Origin: a virus
Lineage: Duplodnaviria; Heunggongvirae; Uroviricota; Caudoviricetes
Direction: 5' to 3' (one strand)
IMG/VR virus record: IMGVR_UViG_2687453454_000003
Location: 1 to 64,000 of that record
Length of the DNA stretch: 64,000 bases
In this document: one piece after another, positions 2,545 to 22,933 of the stretch
How the letters are laid out: each line of letters starts with the position of its first letter
Position numbering within the stretch: position 1 is the stretch's first letter
Notes under the pieces: model-generated
Told to the model about the DNA's origin: nothing
What the model saw: only the letters and a program-made list of their open reading frames with translations
Database searches by the model: none
Program-made: the position numbers and the translations under genes

Positions 2545-4649
2545 TTATTGAGCTTCTTTTTGTGATGCCTGTGCGACTCTGGTGAGCGATTGTGTGACCG
2601 TACTGATCGCTCTGTCATATGCTGTGCTACCTTTTGGCGTATTTGCCAGACGTAACAAGGCATTTCGTATAACAGGGCTTTCGTATGCCTTCGCTGCTCC
2701 GCCTACGGCACCAGCAGCAGGAACAACAAACGCAGCCGTTTTTAGCATCCCCGCTAATACTGCTGCGTTTATGATGCCACCACCAACTAACAATCCATAA
2801 AGCTGCTGACCATTTAAGTTTTGAACGTTCGCTTTTGCCGCGTGTCTTGTATCGTTGAGGTATTTAATAACGCCGTCCAGTTCCTTTCCATGTACGCCTT
2901 TAAAGAAAGTTGCTGATTGCTTCCTGTTCCGGTGTAACGCATTAATAAACTTCTCAACACTGATATTTCCAGACGGATCAGTCGCCTTATCTACAGCATT
3001 CTGAACTATGGCTGCTCGTGCGTTTTGCCTACCATTGTCATCCAGAAGCCTGTAAAGCTGAGAACGTTCTGATGGGCTTTGGCTAAAAACGAGTTTTGTT
3101 ACATCCTCAGGCGTGGCCTTGCCGCTGGCTATTGCCTTTTGAACGCGCGTTCTTCCCATCATGTCATTGAATTTAGACCATGAGCGATCAACCCTTGCCA
3201 TATTAATGGCTTCGTCTGCTCCAAGATTTTTGGCTACGGCTTTTTTCATATCCGCCGTATATGCCTTGTAGATAATATCGCTGGCTTTCTGGAGCGTATC
3301 TTTATCAACAGTGTCAGATGACGCCATAAATCGCTTTCGAAGATCGGTTCTGTTTTCCCTCGCCAGACGCAGGTCATTTGGTCCGCTGGTGATATCGTCT
3401 TTAAATTGCTGCAAGACTTTTACCGCGGCTCTATCCTGAGATTTGCCCGGGCGGCTTAACACGGCAATCTGATTGTCGATAGCTTTTACCGTGTTTGAGA
3501 GATCGACAGGGGTATCCCCCATAGCGTCAATTATGCGGTTATATCGCTTTCCTGCTGCCTCAATGAATTTTTGTTGCCCTTTAGTCGCAGATTCATAAAG
3601 CTGTTTATCAGAAATGCCACCCAGACCATCGCTAAATGTTCTGACTAAATTTTCTCGTGCTTGTTGTTGATTCAGCCGATTCTTACCGGTTCCAAAAAAA
3701 GAACTCTTTCGCCTAATGTCTGAGCCTGACTCTGCATAAAGGTTTTATCTTTCAGCATGTCACTGGTCATTAACGGCAGATTTCTTTCCGATGCAAAGTC
3801 GACAGCAGCCTTTGCTTCAGGCGACATATCACCACGAACAGCCCTCGAAACCGCACTCGCTGTATTTTCCAGCCCCTTACCAATACCACCAATGCCAGCA
3901 GAAATTACCGTTTGTAACGGATCAATATCTTCTCCACCAGCAAGGCTGGTGGCTCCCTGTAGTGCTAAATCTGTAGCTGCTGATTTTCCTATGGCACCAA
4001 GCACCGTTCCAGCCCTGCCCACTGGTGTAAACGCCAACGCATTAGCAAGAAACGAAGTCAGGTCTTGCGGTGATAAACCCGGCTTGTTCAGGGCATAATC
4101 ACCTGATGGCAGAGAAACGATAGTATTCCCCTTCTCATCCTGCCTTAATGTCGCCCCCATTCCCTGAAGAATCTTTTCCTGAGACGCGTCAGAGCCGAAA
4201 AGTTGAGACCATCCAGCCTTTAGGGCATCCATGCTTAGTGAGTTCAATTCTGGGGCAGAGGTGACATTTTGCAGTCTCTCCATCTCTGGAGTCATTCGGC
4301 TTTCGCCTGTTATAGCATCGCGCATCGCAGCCCCAAGACTGGCTCCCTGTTCTGCTGAACGCTCAAGCCCCTCTCTTTGCTGAGTAGCTAACTTTGCATA
4401 CCCTGACGCAAGAGAATTATCAGATGATGTATGTTGAATATTTTGAGTTGCTGATTGGGATCGGTCTATTTCATTCGTTGATGGTAGTGGATAGGCAGCA
4501 TAAAAAGCCTGCTTAGCCTGCTCTACACTTTCTCCGGCTTGCGGGGCAACGACTTCATTGAAGTATTGCTCCTGAGCCTGCGCTTTTTGTTCTGGTGCTA
4601 ACGCCTGATACTGTGGAGAGGCGATAACATCTTTCCATGCTTTAGCCAT
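2545..4649 (-). pseudogene. P22 gp16-like ejection protein, reading frame broken at an A7/T7 run (3694-3700)
   Basis: Two 325-aa ORFs (2545..3522, 3672..4649); the downstream frame stays open and protein-like upstream through the run (..RRKSSFFGTGKNRLNQQQ..), so one indel joins them into about 700 aa. Confidence 0.5.
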
Positions 4650-6070
4650 TAATCACCCCATAGTGAAGAAAAGTTACTGCTGGCTGCTGGCTGTGATACC
4701 TGCTCAGATTGCGGCAATGTCTGCGACGAAGAAGAAGTTCCTCTGTCAACTGCTGAAATAACCCGCAAAGCATCATAAGCTCGACCAGAAGCAGCTTTCA
4801 GCGAATTGAACTGGTTTTCCATCTTCCGGCGCTTGGTATCAATGGTTTTTGTGGAGTCGCCAGGCTGAGGGAAATACATTTGATAATATTTTGACATTTC
4901 AGCAGGTGCGATAGCTGCCCCTGTTTCCTGACGGAGTATTGCCATTATTGCGTCATTAGCATTAACAACGTATTGCTGCTCTGTTGGGCTGAGCGTTAAG
5001 TTAGCCAGCGTCCCATTACCCAAAGCATTATTAATGATCGCCACTCGCTGTGGGCTAAGCTGGTCTTTCAGTGTATCTATTGAATCAAGAGCATCCCTAA
5101 CCCTGTATGCAAATCCAGCAGCTTTTTTAGCCCCTTCTGGCGACTTTTCCATGATCTTTTGGGCTGTTGGCAAAGCTATTGGACGAAACCCATCTCCAGA
5201 TATTGGCTGGTTTAGTTTTCCCTGCTCTTCACTTCCGTCTGTGTAGTATTTTGTGACAGTGCCATCATCGTTTTCTCTAACACTCATTAATTTTTTGGCG
5301 TTTGTATTAATTCCAGCCGCTGCCGCAAATGCCGCCGCCCCCTCTGGATCCGCCTTTAACATTTGAGCGTACTGATTGTAATTCTGCATTGCTGCTGTTG
5401 GTGCATATGCTGACGTTAACGCATTTGCTCGGCTAATATCCTGCCCTCTCGCCTGAAGTGCTTCGCCAGCCTGATTGCTGCGGATTGTCTCTGCCAACTT
5501 GCCACGCTCAATATCCCGACCTTCCATTTGATCTTTGATATCGAAATACTTCTCATGACCGAGAGAAAACAGTGCCATACTACCAGCAAGCCGCTGGAAT
5601 CCCTGTGGATCATTAACATGCATTTCGGCAACAGACTCAGGAGAAATTCCCAAGCGACGCATTTCATCTTCGTTATCTGCTATGAATTTTCCAAATGCCC
5701 CAGTTCCGAGCGAAGATGCGATTTGAGCACTAGTCGCAAGATGACCAATAGAATTTCTCTGGTCGTCATCAATAAAGCCCATCCCTTTCTGAACGCTTTC
5801 AAATTCTTCTGGATACTCAGAAATAAGACTGCGCATTTTGTTTCTGTCTCCAGACTCAAAAGCCCCGGCATATGCTTTCTGAAACTCTGCTTTACGCTGT
5901 TGTTGACGTGCCTGCTGATTAATCTCAGCAACGCCTCTTAGCCCCTGTAGCGCCATTAAACCTACGTTTGGGTGCTGCTGATACTGCACAGGCTGAGGAA
6001 CGGAAGAACGAGGAGCATTATCATTTTGCGGTGCCATGCTAGGCAGCCCGCCAAGTTGCCATGTCGCCAT
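4649..6070 (-). CDS. P22 gp20-like ejection protein
   Basis: 473 aa (P22 gp20 is about 471 aa) and position between gp7-like and gp16-like genes; assignment from recollection. Confidence 0.5.
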   Translation of the reverse strand: MATWQLGGLPSMAPQNDNAPRSSVPQPVQYQQHPNVGLMALQGLRGVAEINQQARQQQRKAEFQKAYAGAFESGDRNKMRSLISEYPEEFESVQKGMGFIDDDQRNSIGHLATSAQIASSLGTGAFGKFIADNEDEMRRLGISPESVAEMHVNDPQGFQRLAGSMALFSLGHEKYFDIKDQMEGRDIERGKLAETIRSNQAGEALQARGQDISRANALTSAYAPTAAMQNYNQYAQMLKADPEGAAAFAAAAGINTNAKKLMSVRENDDGTVTKYYTDGSEEQGKLNQPISGDGFRPIALPTAQKIMEKSPEGAKKAAGFAYRVRDALDSIDTLKDQLSPQRVAIINNALGNGTLANLTLSPTEQQYVVNANDAIMAILRQETGAAIAPAEMSKYYQMYFPQPGDSTKTIDTKRRKMENQFNSLKAASGRAYDALRVISAVDRGTSSSSQTLPQSEQVSQPAASSNFSSLWGD

Positions 6071-6747
6071 TAGAATCCAAGCCCCCCAACAAGACCAATA
6101 AGCCCACCACCAATAGCCCCGGCGACATTACCTATACCCGGAACAACGGAACCAAGTTGCGCACCCGCTAAAGCGCCTGATGCCGCCCCACCAATACCAC
6201 GCGCAAGACTGGATGGCTGCTGCGCCTGACCTGCACGAATAGCGCCAAGCCCCTGCAAGAGTTGCCCGGTATTATTGGCGTAGTTTTGCCCTGCTGTTGC
6301 CTGCCCTGATGCCGCATTCATCCCGACATTTAGCAGGTTTCCATAATTTTGCATTTGCCCACTGAGCCAATTGTTATAAAGCATGGGCGCAATGGAAGAT
6401 AACTGGTTACTGGTAGCTGTTGAGCCAAGCCCCCCGGTAGCTTCTGCTGAGACAAGGTTCTGATAACGGGCCTGATCTGCCTGTGTTTTATATAAACCAG
6501 AACCAAAGAAATCATTCGCGGCTTTATTCTGCCCTTCCAGAGTCATCAGTCCTTGCAGTTGTTGTAAAGCAGGCAATCCGACTTCTGCATACGGCTTGAG
6601 ATTATTCATCACCGTATTCCACTGCTCGCGCTGCAAATCAATTGCCTGCTGCTGGGCCTTCGCCTGAGCTTTAGAGGCACCACCATCACCGCCTTTTTCG
6701 TATACGGCACGATTGAGATGTTTATGAGCTATATGGGTAATTAACAT
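6070..6747 (-). CDS. P22 gp7-like ejection protein
   Basis: 225 aa (P22 gp7 is about 229 aa); Gln/Ala/Gly-rich with glycine-rich hydrophobic C-terminus; gene order 14-7-20-16 as in P22. Confidence 0.5.
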   Translation of the reverse strand: MLITHIAHKHLNRAVYEKGGDGGASKAQAKAQQQAIDLQREQWNTVMNNLKPYAEVGLPALQQLQGLMTLEGQNKAANDFFGSGLYKTQADQARYQNLVSAEATGGLGSTATSNQLSSIAPMLYNNWLSGQMQNYGNLLNVGMNAASGQATAGQNYANNTGQLLQGLGAIRAGQAQQPSSLARGIGGAASGALAGAQLGSVVPGIGNVAGAIGGGLIGLVGGLGF

Positions 6748-15394: not shown

Positions 15395-15512
15395 GTTTAC
15401 TCCTATATTCTGTCATCTTCTTTAATGGACATCAGTAGACAGAAAGGAGATTAAACAAACCGGTGAATGGGTGATAGCGGATAAAAATAAAATATTTTTT
15501 TGAGAAGATTAT

Positions 15513-16473: not shown

Positions 16474-16615
16474 ACGCCACCCCGCGCCCCTAATTCTGAC
16501 GGCTATGCCAGCCCGTAGGGGTGTACGGGTTTTCGGGGATCAGCCTAGACATAGCCTATTCTTTGTTCGTCTACATAAGTCTACTACCATTGCTTAACAC
16601 GGTCTATTCATACAG

Positions 16616-17830
16616 TTAAGCTCGTTTCCCAAACGAACCATGAACAACGTTCTCCTCCTTCTCCAGCGCATCCATATAGTCGGCATACCATTGAAGCATC
16701 TCCCGCCTTCCATCCAGATATTGCGCATGGTTGTATGTGCCACGAATTGAGTTCTTATCAACGTGAGCGAGCTGCGTTTCTATCCACGCGGTGTTATAGC
16801 CCTGCTCATGCAAAATCGTGCTCATAGTGTGCCGGAACCCATGACCAGTTACACGTCCAGCGTAGCCAATGCGCTTAAACACTTGGTTTATGCTGGCCTC
16901 ACTCATTGTTTTCCTTGGATCATTGCGCCCGGGAAACATAAGAGGGTAATTGCCTGTTATTTCTCTAATCTTCCCAATAAGCGAAAGAGCCTGATCAGAC
17001 AATGGCACAATATGAGGCCGCCGCATTTTCATACGTGAAGCGGGTATCTCCCAGATAGCCTTGTTGAAATCAATTTCATCCCATAATGCGCCACGTAGTT
17101 CGCCAGTCCGCAAGCCGGTGATAATCAGTAGACGAGCCGCCATAACAACCAATGCGCTTCCTGAGTAACTGGACAATGCCTTGAAAAAATCAGGTAATTC
17201 TTTAGCTGTAAGGAAAGGGTAATGATTAGATTCATGGCCTTGCATCGCGCTAGTAAGGTCTGGTGCAGGGTTATACTCTGCGCGACCAGTGACTATTGCA
17301 TAGCGGAAAACTTCCCCGCACCGCTGCCTCACTTTTTTGGCTTTTTCTGTAGCACCGCGCCCCTCGATGCGCCGCAGCACATTCAGAAGTTCAAGTGGTT
17401 TGATTTCGGCGATTGGTTTTTTGCCAATGTAAGGGAACACATCTTTGTTGAAGGCTTCGAGGATGTCTGAAGCATAACCAGCAGACCATTTTTTTAATTT
17501 GCTGCTGTGCCACTCAAGGGCAATATCTTTGAAGGTGTTGTTTAACTGCGTTTCCCGGGCAATCTTTTCCTCTCGTTTCGCTTCCATCGGATCGATACCA
17601 CCAGCGATACCTCTTTTCGCATCTTCACGTTTTGCCCGAGCATCGGCTAGAGTAACCTCAGGATACACACCTAGTGCCAATAGCTTCTCTTTACCAGCTA
17701 CACGATATTTAAGTCGCCAGTATTTACCTCCATTAGGTTTTACCAAGAGATACAAACCGCCACCATCGGCCAGCTTGTAAGCCTTCTCTTTTGGCTTGGC
17801 TGTGTCTATTTGACGGGCATTGAGTTTCAC
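16616..17830 (-). CDS. int: tyrosine integrase, P4 family
   Basis: 404 aa; N-terminal arm-binding pattern (AKPKEKAYKLADGGGLYLLVKP.G.KYWRLKYR) and C-terminal catalytic region with GHGFRHT and YNHAQYLD.RR. Confidence 0.9.
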   Translation of the reverse strand: MKLNARQIDTAKPKEKAYKLADGGGLYLLVKPNGGKYWRLKYRVAGKEKLLALGVYPEVTLADARAKREDAKRGIAGGIDPMEAKREEKIARETQLNNTFKDIALEWHSSKLKKWSAGYASDILEAFNKDVFPYIGKKPIAEIKPLELLNVLRRIEGRGATEKAKKVRQRCGEVFRYAIVTGRAEYNPAPDLTSAMQGHESNHYPFLTAKELPDFFKALSSYSGSALVVMAARLLIITGLRTGELRGALWDEIDFNKAIWEIPASRMKMRRPHIVPLSDQALSLIGKIREITGNYPLMFPGRNDPRKTMSEASINQVFKRIGYAGRVTGHGFRHTMSTILHEQGYNTAWIETQLAHVDKNSIRGTYNHAQYLDGRREMLQWYADYMDALEKEENVVHGSFGKRA

Positions 17831-17902
17831 TTGGGGGTACCTCCACTAAACCGAACAGCAAATACCCCCATAAGTACCCCCATCTGACCGTAGATTTTGA
17901 GG

Positions 17903-17978
17903 GACTTTAGTAGACGTCAAAAGACGAACGGGGCTTTAATACACGGATTATAAGGGGTTTTGAAAGACTTTAGTAGAC
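17903..17978. promoter_or_regulatory. two direct GACTTTAGTAGAC repeats (17903-17915, 17966-17978), putative integrase arm-type sites
   Basis: Direct reading; lie between int and the att core; inverted GTCTAC copies at 16569-16588 on the other side of int. Confidence 0.3.
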
Positions 17979-18000
17979 TTGGGGAGATGTTTGAATGGTG

Positions 18001-18048
18001 CCGATAATAGGAGTCGAACCTACGACCTTCGCATTACGAATTATAAGA
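18001..18048 (-). other. 46-bp att core: 3' portion (positions 31-76) of tRNA-Thr(CGU), not a complete tRNA
   Basis: Minus strand reads ATTCGTAATGCGAAGGTCGTAGGTTCGACTCCTATTATCGGCACCA: anticodon loop with CGT, T-arm GTAGG/TTCGACT/CCTAT, acceptor 3' strand and CCA; flanking sequence cannot form the 5' half. Confidence 0.7.
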
Positions 18049-18464
18049 ATCCGCTTCTAATTCAAAGCATTACCCCATCAACACTGCGCTCACACGCCCC
18101 ACCACATCAAAACATGTAAAGCCTTGCAAGCCATTGTGAGGCCTTATGTGTCTCAGTTTTGTCCCACCTTGTATTATGACTTGCATAGCCACTGAAGATA
18201 AACGTGACGACAAACAGCGCAGCAGTCTTCTTTTCTTTCACACTTTCCCCAATCAGCATACATACCTTCTACCATAACTGTAGTGAATGTCTGTTATGAG
18301 CGAGGGGCGGAAGTTCGGAATGCATACTTACTTCGATGTGTGTTAAGCAATGGGGGCAGGTCGGCAATTTATTGTAAAAGCGATAACACTAACAGCATTA
18401 GTGAAGAGGCTAAAGATTTGTTTAGAACCCGCCCCCTTAAGAGGCGGTATTCTTGGCAAACATT

Positions 18465-21400
18465 TTATTTACTGTTTATCAATTGCAATAATGGGATCTC
18501 AGCTACATCACTAGGAATATAGGGGTCATCTTCTTTTAAATTAACCCCAATACAATCAACATCATTTAACCCAATTTCCCAAGCCCACCTAACATCTAAC
18601 GTACTCATTTCTATCCCTAAACTATCTCTTTGTGGATGCTCAGGAACAATATTTTTTAACATCGCATCACATCCAAGATAGAATTTTCCACAGGCCTGAT
18701 ACGCAGCAAGAAATCTTTCTAAATTGACGTTACTATCAGGAGTCATCGTATTAATTCTACTGATCATTGTCATTCTTTTAGTTAATGGCGTTGTCATCAT
18801 ATTTTCAGATATCAGCACTCTATAATGATTTGGGTTTTTAACTGAAATACCCTTGACAATACAAACCCGTAATCTGGCTTTACTATCTACCAAGCCTACT
18901 GATGATATAAGATCTTTAAAAATATCCTCACCTATATTGGGGTGTTTAAATAATAGATATAACCCTGGATAACACGATTTTAATTGAGCGAAGCCTACTC
19001 CTTGCCAGCGTGTTCTATCCCATAGACGAGGCTTGATTAGACTTTGTATTGAATAATCTTTATGCGTTATATTTTCGGAATTAAGTTCCTCTTCAGGCAT
19101 TATTCCTTTACCAGGTGTTGGAACATTTACATCCTCGATCTCCAACACTTTCGGAAATTCACTATCCCAGGGTTTATCTCTTAAAAGAGGGTAAGTTTTC
19201 TTTTCAGCACTGGTGGAATAAATTTTCTTAATTTGTTGATCAATATCATTTCCAAGAACATTTTCAATAGCTTTGATACAGGCACCGAAACTAATTGCTC
19301 TGTCAAATGCAGCATCTTCGAATATCATTCTTTCAATGTATTCTGTATTTTTTGTAAAAAATAACTCAGGGAGAAGATCAAATACTATTTTCTTGAATTC
19401 ATTAGTAATTTTTTGTTGAGCATCGACTCTAAATGAACTTGTTTCAAAACCATTGCAATTTATAGTAAGGTTTAGTTTTCCATTATTGCTATTTATTTCA
19501 TGTGATAAGGAGAAGTCATCTTCATCATCTGCTATTACTTCAATAATTAAAAATGCTTCTTTCAGATGGATGTTATCAATCGTACAAGTTGCAAAAGCAC
19601 TCTCTAAAAGCGCTAAGATACTAGTTGAAAACTCTATAAATGGTGACCGATTCGGAAAGTTAATTTCTATAGTGCATCCAAAAATAAAAGATGTATATAT
19701 TCCTCGTTTATCATAGTTATCTTTTATTCCTTTACTATTGAATCCAGCATCAAAGTCACGTATTTCTTGCAAGAAATCATTATGATCTTTATCGGCAGTA
19801 ACTTCATACTCATGTTCAAAATTTTCAATATAACCTAAAGCATATTTAAGACATCCAGATGATACAAAAAGACCTAATCTATCGAGTTCATCGGGAATAT
19901 TACTCTGTCGATTTATTCCATTTAGGTCAGTGTTCAAAATGAGTTGACTTATGTAAAAATCAACTTGCTGATTTTCTTTATCGCCGAACGAACTTTCACT
20001 GATATTTTGGTTAATTATTAAAAACAGTTCATACCATAAAAGAGCATGTGCTAATTTCCCTAGTTTTATTTCTGCCAGGCATAAACTATAATAAATCTCA
20101 GCCTGCTTTAATGATATCTCATCATACTTCCAGTAGTTATCTGTAATCAAAGAAGCGGATAGAAGCAAGCATGAACGTGAACTCCATAGCAACCCAATGG
20201 ATTCGTAAGCATAAGCAATAGCTTTTAATGCTAATATAAATTTATCTCGTGATTCCTCTTTATAGAGTGGTATAAATGATTTTCCTAAATACTTGATTGC
20301 CTGATAAGGGTGACCATTTTGAATCCTCTTTATACCTCTTCGTAGATTTAATAATGCCCCTTTAACTTCACCACCTCTAACAGCAGATTGCTCAGTCATA
20401 TAGTCTAATAAATTTTCATATGCATCTACCTCGAAAAAAATGTCATCCAGTTCGTTCAAAAGTTGGAAGTTCTTCTCAAAGGAATAGCCTATTAAATTCC
20501 CACTATTTTTAAAAATTTCATGTAACTCTTCAAATACAACCGAAGCATCTTCTACATCTGAAAACGTTGTCAATTTATAAATAGCTTTGTGAGTTCTCGC
20601 TGTGAGTGCATTACTGGGACGTGATTCATCGTCAGCTATCTCATCTAGTTTAGCAAGCATGTTACGTTCAATATTCTCAATATCGATTGTAGATGTTGCG
20701 TTGTTAAGTCTAATATAACTTTTATGAACGGTTACTAAATTTAAAACTTTCTCCCATTTTGAGGAATTAGTTGATGATGCAATACTTTCATATGCAAATT
20801 GAAGATTTTCTTCAAAGAGATTAAAATCTTCCATCCAAAAATGAGACTTCCAGGCATATTGATAATACGCATCTAGCAATTGTTGATTAGTCCCGAATTT
20901 CTTTGATATTTTTATAGCTCTTTCAAATAGACCTTGTGTTTCAATTAGTGGTTTCTCAAGTTCAGCGCTTAACTCTGCAATTTCTAAAAAAATATCCACC
21001 TGTTCATATGAAATTTCAGCAGGGTTTATTTTCTCTCTAATATACTCGGTTAACTCTTCATATTTTTTATGCTTTTTATAATCATTTTCTCCAAAAATAA
21101 CTTCTCTTTTATATTGCGTTGGAACTGACAATGAATCAATGGCCAATTGCTCAAAATTATTTTTGTAAATTTGATCTAATAGCCAATTAATATCTAATAT
21201 ACGAACATCTATTCCAGTTTTTGTTTTTAGTGTATCCTCAACCTCTGAACGAATATTGGACTTTGCAGACTGGTTCGTTACGCAAAATACTTTAGCATAC
21301 CCACGTTCTGTTTCTTTTATCTTAAGTACATCTTCATGGCATTTTTTCTTCCAGTCTTTACGTGTACTTACCGCAAAGGCCCAGCGTTCTCTATTTGATG

Positions 21401-21716
21401 CTTCATTAACGCCTTCGAACCAAAGAAGCTTATTCTGTTCTGAAACAGGGAATGTTTGTGTGTCAGTTTTACCATCCCCCCCTGCTACAGGGCCAGTTTG
21501 TTCAAGGAGATTAGGGCAAATTATTTTTTCACATATTTTTTTTGCAAAATCTTCGAATTGTAGTTCTTGATTTCTTGTATTTAGCGTAGAGAGGAAGTGT
21601 TCCAGTACAACTCTGTCTAAAGTACCAGTCTCTCTGATTGTTGAATCAGAAAATTTTTCAGGGCGACGGCGCCTTAGAAATTCTTTAGATGAAAATTTGG
21701 TTTTCTGTACATTCAT
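18465..21716 (-). CDS. large orphan protein (1083 aa), AT-rich; possible N-terminal Mrr-like nuclease motif plus long helical region
   Basis: Single uninterrupted ORF with low GC; GGDGKTD...EQNK near residue 80 loosely resembles the Mrr catalytic motif (D...QxK); no Walker A found. Confidence 0.6.
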   Translation of the reverse strand: MNVQKTKFSSKEFLRRRRPEKFSDSTIRETGTLDRVVLEHFLSTLNTRNQELQFEDFAKKICEKIICPNLLEQTGPVAGGDGKTDTQTFPVSEQNKLLWFEGVNEASNRERWAFAVSTRKDWKKKCHEDVLKIKETERGYAKVFCVTNQSAKSNIRSEVEDTLKTKTGIDVRILDINWLLDQIYKNNFEQLAIDSLSVPTQYKREVIFGENDYKKHKKYEELTEYIREKINPAEISYEQVDIFLEIAELSAELEKPLIETQGLFERAIKISKKFGTNQQLLDAYYQYAWKSHFWMEDFNLFEENLQFAYESIASSTNSSKWEKVLNLVTVHKSYIRLNNATSTIDIENIERNMLAKLDEIADDESRPSNALTARTHKAIYKLTTFSDVEDASVVFEELHEIFKNSGNLIGYSFEKNFQLLNELDDIFFEVDAYENLLDYMTEQSAVRGGEVKGALLNLRRGIKRIQNGHPYQAIKYLGKSFIPLYKEESRDKFILALKAIAYAYESIGLLWSSRSCLLLSASLITDNYWKYDEISLKQAEIYYSLCLAEIKLGKLAHALLWYELFLIINQNISESSFGDKENQQVDFYISQLILNTDLNGINRQSNIPDELDRLGLFVSSGCLKYALGYIENFEHEYEVTADKDHNDFLQEIRDFDAGFNSKGIKDNYDKRGIYTSFIFGCTIEINFPNRSPFIEFSTSILALLESAFATCTIDNIHLKEAFLIIEVIADDEDDFSLSHEINSNNGKLNLTINCNGFETSSFRVDAQQKITNEFKKIVFDLLPELFFTKNTEYIERMIFEDAAFDRAISFGACIKAIENVLGNDIDQQIKKIYSTSAEKKTYPLLRDKPWDSEFPKVLEIEDVNVPTPGKGIMPEEELNSENITHKDYSIQSLIKPRLWDRTRWQGVGFAQLKSCYPGLYLLFKHPNIGEDIFKDLISSVGLVDSKARLRVCIVKGISVKNPNHYRVLISENMMTTPLTKRMTMISRINTMTPDSNVNLERFLAAYQACGKFYLGCDAMLKNIVPEHPQRDSLGIEMSTLDVRWAWEIGLNDVDCIGVNLKEDDPYIPSDVAEIPLLQLINSK

Positions 21717-21778
21717 GATTTTGACGCTCCTCTTGCTATCGACAATAAACCTTTGTATGCATCAACTAGATTTATTGT

Positions 21779-22030
21779 TCATACTGCCTTTTTTTGAAGA
21801 AAAAATTGCGGAAGTCTATTTCTAGACAAGCTATCTATGTATTCACTATACCACTGCATCATCTGTTGTCTCCCTTCCAAATACTGTGCATGATTGTAAG
21901 CCCCGAGAATAGCGTTCTTATCCACATGTGCAAGTTGTGTTTCGAAACATGCAGAGTTGAATCCTTCTTCGTGCAGAATGGTACTCATTGTGTGACGAAA
22001 ACCATGCCCCGTCAGCCTTCCTTTTTATCC
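21779..22030 (-). pseudogene. C-terminal remnant of a P4-family integrase
   Basis: Translation GRLTGHGFRHTMSTILHEEGF..LAHVDKNAILGAYNHAQYLEGRQQMMQWY aligns with the last 80 residues of the 404-aa integrase; no N-terminal part upstream. Confidence 0.6.
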
Positions 22031-22348
22031 TAATAGCTCAATTACCTGATTAATGCTTTCCTTTGAGATCGGCTTAGTACGATCATCACGTCCAATGAAT
22101 ACTATCGGATAGATGCACCTAATCTTATAACATCGTGTTTTCTATGTCCGTTCCTGGCACATAGCAGTCCTAGAGACAGTGGCGTAAAGTCATGGAGGAT
22201 CGGTGGGAGGAGGCGCTAATCCTTTCATACAAAAATATGTAAAATCAATAACGGCTGTAAATCATTCAATACTCGCACTATCGGAAGTTCACCAGCCAGC
22301 CGCAGCACGTTATTGCATACAACGTGTATGCGGCGTATCTCAAAACGA

Positions 22349-22933
22349 TTACTCCATTACAGGGACAGCAGGCCACTCAATATCCGGTGCTACTGATGTA
22401 TCAACACGGTTCAGCAATACCCGATACTTTTTCCAGGCTGCCAGCAACGAGATTTCTTCCTCCGTTGCGATTTCCAGATCTACAGCATCCTGAAGTGGCG
22501 CAATATGCTCACTGGCTACCTGCATCAGGCTGTTTTTTGTTTCTTCCGCCTCCCGGATCCGGAACAGTTTTTCTGCTTCTGCATCTTTCACCCAGGCTGT
22601 GCCGTTCCACTTCTGAAACTCCCCTTCCGGCGATAACCAGGTAACATTTTCCGGTAACGGACCGAGTTCAGAAATAAATAACTCGTCTCCTGACGCTACG
22701 TCATAAACCGTTTTACCCCGATGGTCTTCAACGAGATGCCACGATGCCTCATCACTGTTGAAAACAGCCACAAAGCCAGCAGGAATATCTGGTGGTGCAA
22801 TATCGGTACTGTTTGCTGGCAGACCTGTATGAGGCGGAATATATGCATCACCTTCACCAATAAATTCATTAGTTCCGGCCAGCAGATTATAAATTGTTAT
22901 GGTCCGTGGTTGTTCACTCATTCTGAATGCCAT
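22349..22933 (-). CDS. tfa: tail fiber assembly protein
   Basis: 194 aa (lambda Tfa is 194 aa); directly downstream of the side tail fiber gene. Confidence 0.85.

Follow-up and report, generated by a model that had tools for sequence, protein, structure and literature searches.

The 64,000-nucleotide stretch of tailed-phage DNA analyzed here (IMG/VR record IMGVR_UViG_2687453454_000003, positions 1 to 64,000; hereafter the window) carries a 1083-amino acid (aa) gene that is a good candidate for a new single-gene phage-defence system, as judged by its domain architecture and by the mobile elements and anti-phage genes in whose company the family travels. The encoded protein, whose activity is deduced by analogy, may act as a stand-alone sensor-nuclease with three parts, no obligatory partner and no dependence on a nucleoside triphosphatase (NTPase); this reading is given about an even chance of being correct. 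It draws on the predicted fold, the domain architecture, the conservation pattern, the mobility of the gene and the neighbourhoods of its homologs. The trigger, target and outcome are proposed by analogy with Avs4, Upx and GAPS1.

Predicted fold and conserved residues of the 1083-aa protein

The gene is a single open reading frame (ORF) of low guanine-cytosine (GC) content, as an earlier note on this DNA had described it, and has an ATG start. GC content along the gene is 0.32–0.35 (about 0.33 overall) compared to 0.45–0.52 in the flanks, and GC at third codon positions (GC3) is 0.24 compared to 0.45–0.46 in the adjacent integrase (int) and tail-fibre genes. E. coli strain 6409 carries the window sequence at 100% identity, and the gene is 100% identical to a coding sequence annotated as “hypothetical protein”. 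The ratio of nonsynonymous to synonymous substitution rates (dN/dS), determined against the ortholog in a selC island on contig L020, is 0.147 for the whole gene, which has therefore been under purifying selection; the corresponding value for the N-terminal domain (N-domain) is 0.09. The gene is intact in the window and 100% identical in unrelated isolates. A promoter and terminator scan was uninformative, with promoter-like sites fewer than in shuffled sequences.

A confident AlphaFold2 model generated with 36 family members as input (mean predicted local distance difference test score, pLDDT, of 83; predicted template modelling score, pTM, of 0.72) contains three parts: an alpha/beta domain (residues 1 to ~210), an all-helical repeat region (~211–654) and a two-lobed alpha/beta region (~655–1083). 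In this model the N-domain is shown to have a nuclease fold. It contains the restriction-endonuclease-like alpha-beta-beta-beta-alpha-beta core, its structural matches are PD-(D/E)xK nucleases, among them the Avs4 effector domain, and the top matches are type IV/IIS restriction nucleases. Such a fold had been set beforehand as a test of the Mrr-like nuclease proposed in the earlier note, a proposal that holds at the level of the fold but not at the residues originally named. Residues 211–654 form tandem helix-turn-helix repeats that build a solenoid of the tetratricopeptide repeat (TPR) type. Proteins or peptides are the usual ligands of TPR solenoids. The previous description of the remaining 900 aa as helical applies to this repeat of ~440 aa but not to the last ~420 aa, which are mixed alpha/beta and gave no Pfam match when the isolated region (655–1083) was searched.

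The earlier statement that the protein lacks a P-loop is correct in substance. A Walker-A-like string at residues 473–480 (A473-x4-G-K-S) fits the pattern [AG]xxxxGK[ST] in 23 of the 36 members used for the model; it was rejected as a P-loop, being located within a TPR helix, with position 479 mostly R across the wider family. Searches of Pfam, NCBIfam and PADLOC matched the protein to no NTPase family.

Residue conservation was counted over 134 diverse full-length sequences, comprising 133 representatives and the window protein. Conservation is highest in the N-domain, and within it over residues 61–100, where mean column identity reaches 0.88–0.94. D81, D85, S117 and D129 are present in all 134 sequences, K125 in 133 and K83 in 132; E55 in the first long helix, S117 in the strand that precedes helix 2, and, within that helix, K125 and D129 are invariant family-wide. 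Of the nuclease motif suggested previously, GGDGKTD...EQNK, the aspartates and K83 are thus upheld, but K96, the lysine of EQNK, is found in only 99 of 246 N-domains and in 8 of the 134 sequences. The GGDGKTD segment resembles GDGGID of E. coli Mrr, and an hhalign comparison of the N-domain profile with an Mrr profile pairs these two strings, together with STRKDW and QAKRW, at an E-value of 0.37. Both profiles are low in diversity, and the Mrr homologs gathered were only close relatives (at least 72% identical). The mapping of residues onto the D...QxK motif of Mrr is a manual reading with which the hhalign path agrees. For the family at large, E55, D81/D85, E87 and S117-x-K119 make up a plausible catalytic set, which is probably complete.

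Within the family, the window protein falls into a minority branch. Most members carry E87 (124/134) and K119 (105/134), compared to Q87 and R119 in the window protein, where the site corresponding to the QxK motif reads S117-T-R119 instead of S117-x-K119. Positions 87 and 119 covary almost perfectly across the 246 N-domains, with residue pairs (E,K) in 85, (Q,Q) in 91, (Q,R) in 52 and (Q,N) in 6. Additional positions differ between the two types: the E87/K119 type carries A118 and mostly A62/V126, and the Q87/(Q,R,N)119 type carries T118 and C62/C126 (window ~21339-21533).

The C-terminal half contains its own set of near-invariant polar residues, namely E705 and Y965 (133 of 134 each), R806 (132), R987 (126), H885 and D944 (125 each) and N998 (119); T710 is also conserved family-wide. 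This set suggests, from the alignment, a second functional site. An acidic ADDEDD run (residues 729–734; consensus ADDDDE) and the SHE that follows it are features of the enterobacterial branch and are not conserved across the family.

Family distribution and genomic neighbourhoods

The gene had been considered an orphan, a description that does not survive the database searches. At least 760 homologs were identified at E ≤ 1e-3 among the candidates scored in a 90%-clustered protein database. The best 120 of these are nearly all 1,071–1,102 aa in length with 98–100% query cover and identity down to 42%; they originate from Serratia, Aeromonas, Vibrio, Shewanella, Pseudoalteromonas, Halomonas, Acinetobacter and others, and all are named either “hypothetical” or “tetratricopeptide repeat protein”. 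When a profile was searched exhaustively against 1.84 billion representatives of 50%-identity clusters, it returned 2,482 proteins at E ≤ 1e-3 and 923 at E ≤ 1e-30, and the best 150 of the 2,482 are almost all single end-to-end matches of 1,050–1,140 aa. More distant full-length relatives (27–30% identity by tblastn) are found on plasmids of Agrobacterium, Pseudosulfitobacter, Sphingobium, Burkholderia, Cupriavidus, Nostoc and Cohnella. The family accordingly spans several phyla, with plasmid members in Alpha- and Betaproteobacteria, Cyanobacteria and Bacillota. The gene is rare in E. coli: the full gene is present in 23 of 5,426 complete genomes (0.4%), and every copy is at least 99.5% identical.

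Proteins of 220–260 aa containing only the N-domain were observed on megabase contigs of Psychromonas and Rheinheimera (P0121, P0141, P0189). These could be pseudogene fragments or free-standing nuclease-fold domains.

The possibility that the gene is phage-borne was considered and rejected, since a phage collection gave a single match, on an unverified scaffold of faecal origin that bears markers of Bacteroides conjugative transposons. That match is a 1062-aa homolog at 3390-6578 of MT836254.1 (L025), a record titled “UNVERIFIED Bacteriophage sp.”, and its neighbours encode DUF4099/DUF3945, MutS_I, DUF1848 and a UvrD-like helicase. These surroundings look like a Bacteroides conjugative-transposon region and not like a phage.

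Homologs were found on integrase islands, on elements with recombinase trios resembling those of Gamma-Mobile-Trio (GMT) islands, and on plasmids, some beside parAB. At the approximately one dozen loci inspected by eye, the neighbours are mostly defence genes. The Aeromonas homolog is accompanied by a Gabija-like pair, Mrr_cat, AbiH and a Cap4/AAA_22/SEC-C protein, and the V. parahaemolyticus homolog lies between an upstream SIR2 gene and an AbiH gene directly downstream. Upstream of the Citrobacter homolog are TerB, a BrxC/D-like gene and a DEAD helicase, with a kinase downstream. The Microbulbifer homolog is contained within an element in the order int, DUF6387, AlpA, primase, kinase and the gene itself, with a RES toxin close by, and the Pectobacterium homolog adjoins DUF6387, AlpA and two recombinases. 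The Acinetobacter homolog is located behind a 996-aa DEAD/ResIII helicase, and a homolog from a metagenomic lineage is flanked by PAAR-DUF4225 effectors and an AIPR protein. On plasmids, the homologs adjoin AbiEii and NACHT (Nostoc), DUF3800, PP2C and a kinase (Agrobacterium), or an S8 peptidase and an AAA ATPase (Burkholderia).

No neighbouring gene was constant across these loci. Kinases (three loci), AbiH (two) and the S8-peptidase and AAA pair (two) were each tried as a fixed partner and rejected. The pattern fits a self-contained gene moving within defence islands.

Several recurring neighbours were recorded separately. Ser/Thr kinases of ~340–390 aa adjoin the Citrobacter, Microbulbifer and Agrobacterium members (L008 11376-12401, L009 6839-7855 and L013 3698-4858, respectively); they are weakly similar to one another (E 3e-4) and are located on differing sides of the gene. 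The Agrobacterium kinase is itself next to a 986-aa protein that shares the N-domain alone with the family. An S8-family peptidase and an AAA/ATP-binding protein occur within a few kb of the gene on unrelated plasmids of Agrobacterium pusense (L013 1-3299) and Burkholderia plantarii (L018 185-3883), and this pair is possibly an independent two-gene defence module. At two further loci (L003 7718-10458+ and L010 1852-7458), DUF6387 and an AlpA-type helix-turn-helix (HTH) gene are followed by two tyrosine recombinases and a ~550-aa DNA-binding protein, an arrangement resembling the GMT islands described in bioRxiv 10.1101/2023.03.28.534373. DUF6387 recurs with int and AlpA across element types and is a backbone gene, not variable cargo.

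Comparison with known systems and alternative explanations

Sequence searches did not connect the protein to any characterized family. No match above noise was obtained in Pfam, NCBIfam, PADLOC, PHROGs or the sequences of the PDB using the single protein, or in the PDB using the family profile. Neither the accession nor the locus tags are mentioned in the searchable literature. The components of the protein are already familiar; the family itself is unnamed and unannotated.

Three known systems provide the closest parallels. Avs4 (PDB 8dgf), an antiviral STAND NTPase with an N-terminal Mrr-like nuclease and a C-terminal TPR-like sensor, has the effector and repeat-sensor types proposed for the window protein, which differs in lacking a STAND/P-loop NTPase between nuclease and repeats and in having an additional alpha/beta C-terminal half of ~420 aa. 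The stretch that follows the nuclease domain, up to the C-terminal half, is all-helical, no central STAND NTPase domain with Walker A and B motifs was recognized, and the Avs models in PADLOC displayed no sequence similarity to the protein. Upx is a single-protein PD-(D/E)xK defence system reported to sense phage terminase (PDB 9wuf; PMC13099982; bioRxiv 10.64898/2026.04.30.721860). It resembles the window protein in size (~1,100–1,270 aa) and in combining a sensor with a PD-(D/E)xK nuclease without an NTPase; identity with Upx was rejected, neither homology to the Upx model nor its order of N-terminal sensor and canonical C-terminal PD-(D/E)xK domain having been found. GAPS1, a single-protein PD-(D/E)xK system on GMT islands, is reported to be triggered by a phage capsid protein (bioRxiv 10.1101/2023.03.28.534373). 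The likeness consists of a single gene, a PD-(D/E)xK effector and location on gammaproteobacterial mobile islands, with homologs of the window protein adjoining GMT-like recombinase trios. However, GAPS1 is a much smaller protein with its nuclease domain toward the C-terminus (D313, K328), and none of the synthesized GAPS2-13 genes begins like the family; identity with GAPS1-13 was rejected on these grounds. Compared to the Mrr-FokI clade (Mrr, MspJI, AspBHI, LlaBIII, FokI), the protein has no DNA-reader domain and no significant Mrr_cat match.

By analogy with these systems, the N-terminal Mrr/FokI-type PD-(D/E)xK domain is likely the effector, and the TPR solenoid together with the C-terminal half is likely the sensor or regulator. 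In the resting state, the TPR and C-terminal region would keep the nuclease domain inactive. Binding of a phage or foreign-element protein would serve as the trigger, leading to release or oligomerisation and to nucleic-acid cleavage for which no NTPase would be needed, and infection would be stopped via abortive infection or direct attack on phage DNA. This logic would parallel that of Avs4, Upx and GAPS1, minus the STAND ATPase. The gene is cargo of mobile islands and, where the island is intact, is located directly behind a P4-type integrase at selC. What persists in the window is a 3.7-kb piece, consisting of a truncated integrase and the intact gene, which separates the tfa end of a lambdoid prophage from the thrW core used by a P4-like satellite.

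A number of results weigh against this sensor-nuclease proposal. The defence-system predictor that the earlier note had called for was unsupportive, with PADLOC returning 0 matches even when distant members of the family were included. Mrr_cat (PF04471) in Pfam was unmatched by the whole protein at E ≤ 1 and by the isolated N-domains of three members at E ≤ 10, and the hhalign scores were not significant whether the N-domain was compared with single Mrr sequences or with the shallow Mrr profile. A profile search with the N-domain returned solely fragments of the same family, providing no bridge to annotated Mrr_cat proteins. The segment that bears the invariant aspartates is modelled poorly, with pLDDT < 50 for residues 74–97. 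The branch of the window protein has Q87/R119 in place of E87/K119, a change that may alter or weaken catalysis. In E. coli, several copies have been disrupted by IS1 or IS903B insertion, frameshift or truncation, and the gene is therefore dispensable. Finally, the association with defence islands was judged by eye, at about a dozen loci.

The principal alternative explanation is that the nuclease fold is catalytically dead in the enterobacterial branch and acts as a regulatory module or as one that binds nucleic acid or a ligand, with the effector located elsewhere (e.g. in the C-terminal half) or with sequestration of the target in place of cleavage. This alternative is a serious contender, if on balance unlikely. 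It is supported by the covariation of positions 87 and 119 and by the departure of the window protein from the predominant E87 and K119, and the near-invariant polar residues of the C-terminal half (E705/R806/H885/D944/Y965/R987/N998) offer a possible site for such an effector. The remainder of the putative active site is nonetheless retained, as D81, K83, D85, K125 and D129 remain invariant in the Q87 branch, and the strong conservation of residues 61–100 together with the low N-domain dN/dS fits an active site that is still used. PD-(D/E)xK enzymes also tolerate a replaced or migrated lysine or second acid, as in BamHI and BglII.

Two further explanations concern the role of the gene. Service to the mobile element through addiction, exclusion or interference with competing phages, satellites or plasmids, or mere persistence as a passive stranded fragment, appears improbable. 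It is consistent with the invariable location of the gene on or beside mobile DNA (integrase islands, GMT-like trios, plasmids, some by parAB), with the destruction of its own integrase in the window and with the disruption of E. coli relatives by insertion sequences (IS) or frameshifts. This explanation overlaps heavily with the defence reading, most defence systems being mobile-element cargo; moreover, there is no small antitoxin-like partner gene, and the gene is preserved intact and unchanged among unrelated isolates. It is quite improbable that the protein works as a TPR scaffold in housekeeping or regulation, or that it is a type IV restriction enzyme which, like Mrr, MspJI and AspBHI, recognizes modified DNA directly, with the TPR and C-terminal parts in place of the DNA reader. 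The type IV/IIS nucleases heading the structural matches of the N-domain and the TPR designation of some homologs would agree with one or the other. The sporadic, horizontally transferred distribution in E. coli is unlike that of a housekeeping gene, however, and no SRA, winged-helix or other DNA-reader domain was found by Pfam in the whole protein or in the isolated domains. The preference of TPR solenoids for proteins or peptides likewise argues against a DNA-reading role.

Should the sensor-nuclease proposal be correct and the gene protective, a large multi-phylum family that is nameless in current annotation resources would join the catalogue of single-gene defence systems, and the combination of an Mrr-like nuclease with a TPR sensor seen in Avs4 would be found to work without the STAND ATPase thought to drive activation. 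The result would be a simpler model in which binding of the trigger switches the nuclease on. The natural split between E87/K119 and Q87/R119 provides a built-in active-site experiment, and approximately 2,500 clusters of “hypothetical proteins” gain a defined architecture. A bolder form of the proposal, considered unlikely, is that the protein is the founding example of a widespread family of NTPase-independent immune sensors (about 2,500 clusters at 50% identity) with a second conserved polar site in the C-terminal half, and that the enterobacterial branch of this family has rewired its PD-(D/E)xK centre (from E87/K119 to Q87/Q,R,N119) around a near-frozen 35-residue loop. If true, it would entail an effector chemistry or an activation mode new to sensor-nuclease defence proteins.

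Local context in the window and origin of the block

The coordinates of the gene, its domains and the surrounding features are provided in Table 1. On the minus strand, the tail genes of the lambdoid prophage come first, in the order tape measure, L, C40 peptidase, tail assembly, J, lom, stf and tfa, and are followed by the integrase remnant, the 1083-aa gene, the thrW core, an intact element and P22-like ejection genes. The intact element beyond the core contains int, DUF6387, an AlpA-type HTH gene, antirepressor, Ash and a TOPRIM/DUF927 primase.

Table 1 Features of the 1083-aa gene and its surroundings in the window.
Feature	Position	Strand	Basis
1083-aa gene, WP_039268304.1 in E. coli strain 6409	18465..21716	minus	ORF list, ATG start
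Shine-Dalgarno GAGGAG, 10 nt 5' of the ATG of the gene	21727..21732	minus	read from sequence
N-terminal domain, residues 1-210, predicted restriction-endonuclease-like PD-(D/E)xK, Mrr/FokI-type fold	21087..21716	minus	
Near-invariant segment CEKIICPNLLEQTGPVAGGDGKTDTQTFPVSEQNKLL, residues 62-98, holding D81, K83, D85 and Q87	21423..21533	minus	alignments
TPR-like alpha-helical solenoid, residues 211-654, ~440 aa, putative sensor/protein-binding region	19755..21086	minus	
Two-lobed alpha/beta C-terminal region, residues 655-1083, ~420 aa	18465..19754	minus	secondary structure, pLDDT
P4-type tyrosine integrase remnant, selC-island type	21779..22126	minus	tblastn, RefSeq pseudogene annotation
3.7-kb block: truncated int, gene and 47 bp	18418..22111	minus	blastn, 92.7% to L020 11300-7606
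46-nt copy of the tRNA-Thr (thrW) 3' end, attachment (att) core of the adjacent satellite	17996-18041	minus	exact match

This layout largely bears out the earlier note, which had placed the gene in the prophage “b region” slot beside tfa and about 400 bp from a 46-bp tRNA-Thr core. The gene lies between tfa and the att core, and the core is located 424 bp beyond its stop codon, marking the distal side of the block that contains the gene. A truncated P4-family integrase is present upstream as had been stated, but it is longer than the reported 21779..22030, extending to ~22126. It corresponds to residues 287–391 of the intact 404-aa int (16616-17830) at 63% identity and contains one internal stop. 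The thrW-type island history assumed for the gene was replaced by a selC-type one, for the following reasons.

The block is colinear with the selC island on contig L020, where a tRNA-SeC gene is followed by 162 bp, an intact 391-aa P4-type int, 101 bp and the ortholog of the 1083-aa gene (94% aa identity), with unknown genes, a YfjJ-like gene and AlpA beyond it. The window therefore carries a 3.7-kb fragment of a selC-type island, as determined by sequence comparison, whose integrase has lost its first ~286 codons. At the DNA level the remnant is 92.7% identical to the 3'-terminal part of the L020 int, and this origin was preferred to descent from a thrW satellite integrase that had decayed, which was rejected. 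A gene directly behind a P4-type integrase can thus outlast its island as a stranded fragment.

Within the window the thrW core sequence was matched exactly once, against a chance expectation of 0. The tRNA-Thr annotated in strain EC21Z-063 is identical to it, with an identity over 48 nt for the tRNA-Thr of L002. No complete tRNA was detected in the window by ARAGORN. In a related strain, the complete thrW gene is located past the integrase that belongs to the prophage, so that the region as a whole is a stack of elements piled at thrW. The same module, including the internal thrW core, adjoins mscS in the E. coli NWU strains, where an apparent IS3-type terminus (L003 16086-16160) cuts into the integrase remnant 40 bp before the point at which it breaks off in the window. 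The arrangement at mscS is a secondary rearrangement. In EC21Z-063, a deletion fuses the locus of the 1083-aa gene to a truncated primase.

Defence cargo of P4-like satellites has been described in a hotspot between psu and int (Rousset et al. 2022, PMC9122126). This psu-int slot and the P4 core genes were not found, with no psu, delta or sid annotated in the window element or in L020. The 1083-aa gene lies outside the intact satellite, across its att core, and follows a P4-type integrase both here and in L020.

Some minor features of the region were also observed. The segment 18042-18417 is outside the selC-island homology and contains a 50-aa ORF with a hydrophobic stretch (18107-18259, minus strand). 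Rfam IS009 (RF02111) was matched at full length with 222 bits within tfa (22392-22590, minus strand). An int-alpA RNA (Rfam RF02996; 46.7 bits against a gathering threshold of 35.8) is located between the satellite int and DUF6387 (16488-16555, minus strand); the stretch separating the integrase remnant from the 1083-aa gene gave no match to this motif. Direct repeats of TTTTGA(G/A)(G/A)GACTTTAGTAGAC are present at 17895-17915 and 17958-17978, in the interval from the start of the intact int to the thrW core; a third, weaker copy is present at 15420-15440, upstream of the AlpA-type HTH gene. These repeats are probably arm-type binding sites for the integrase of the satellite.

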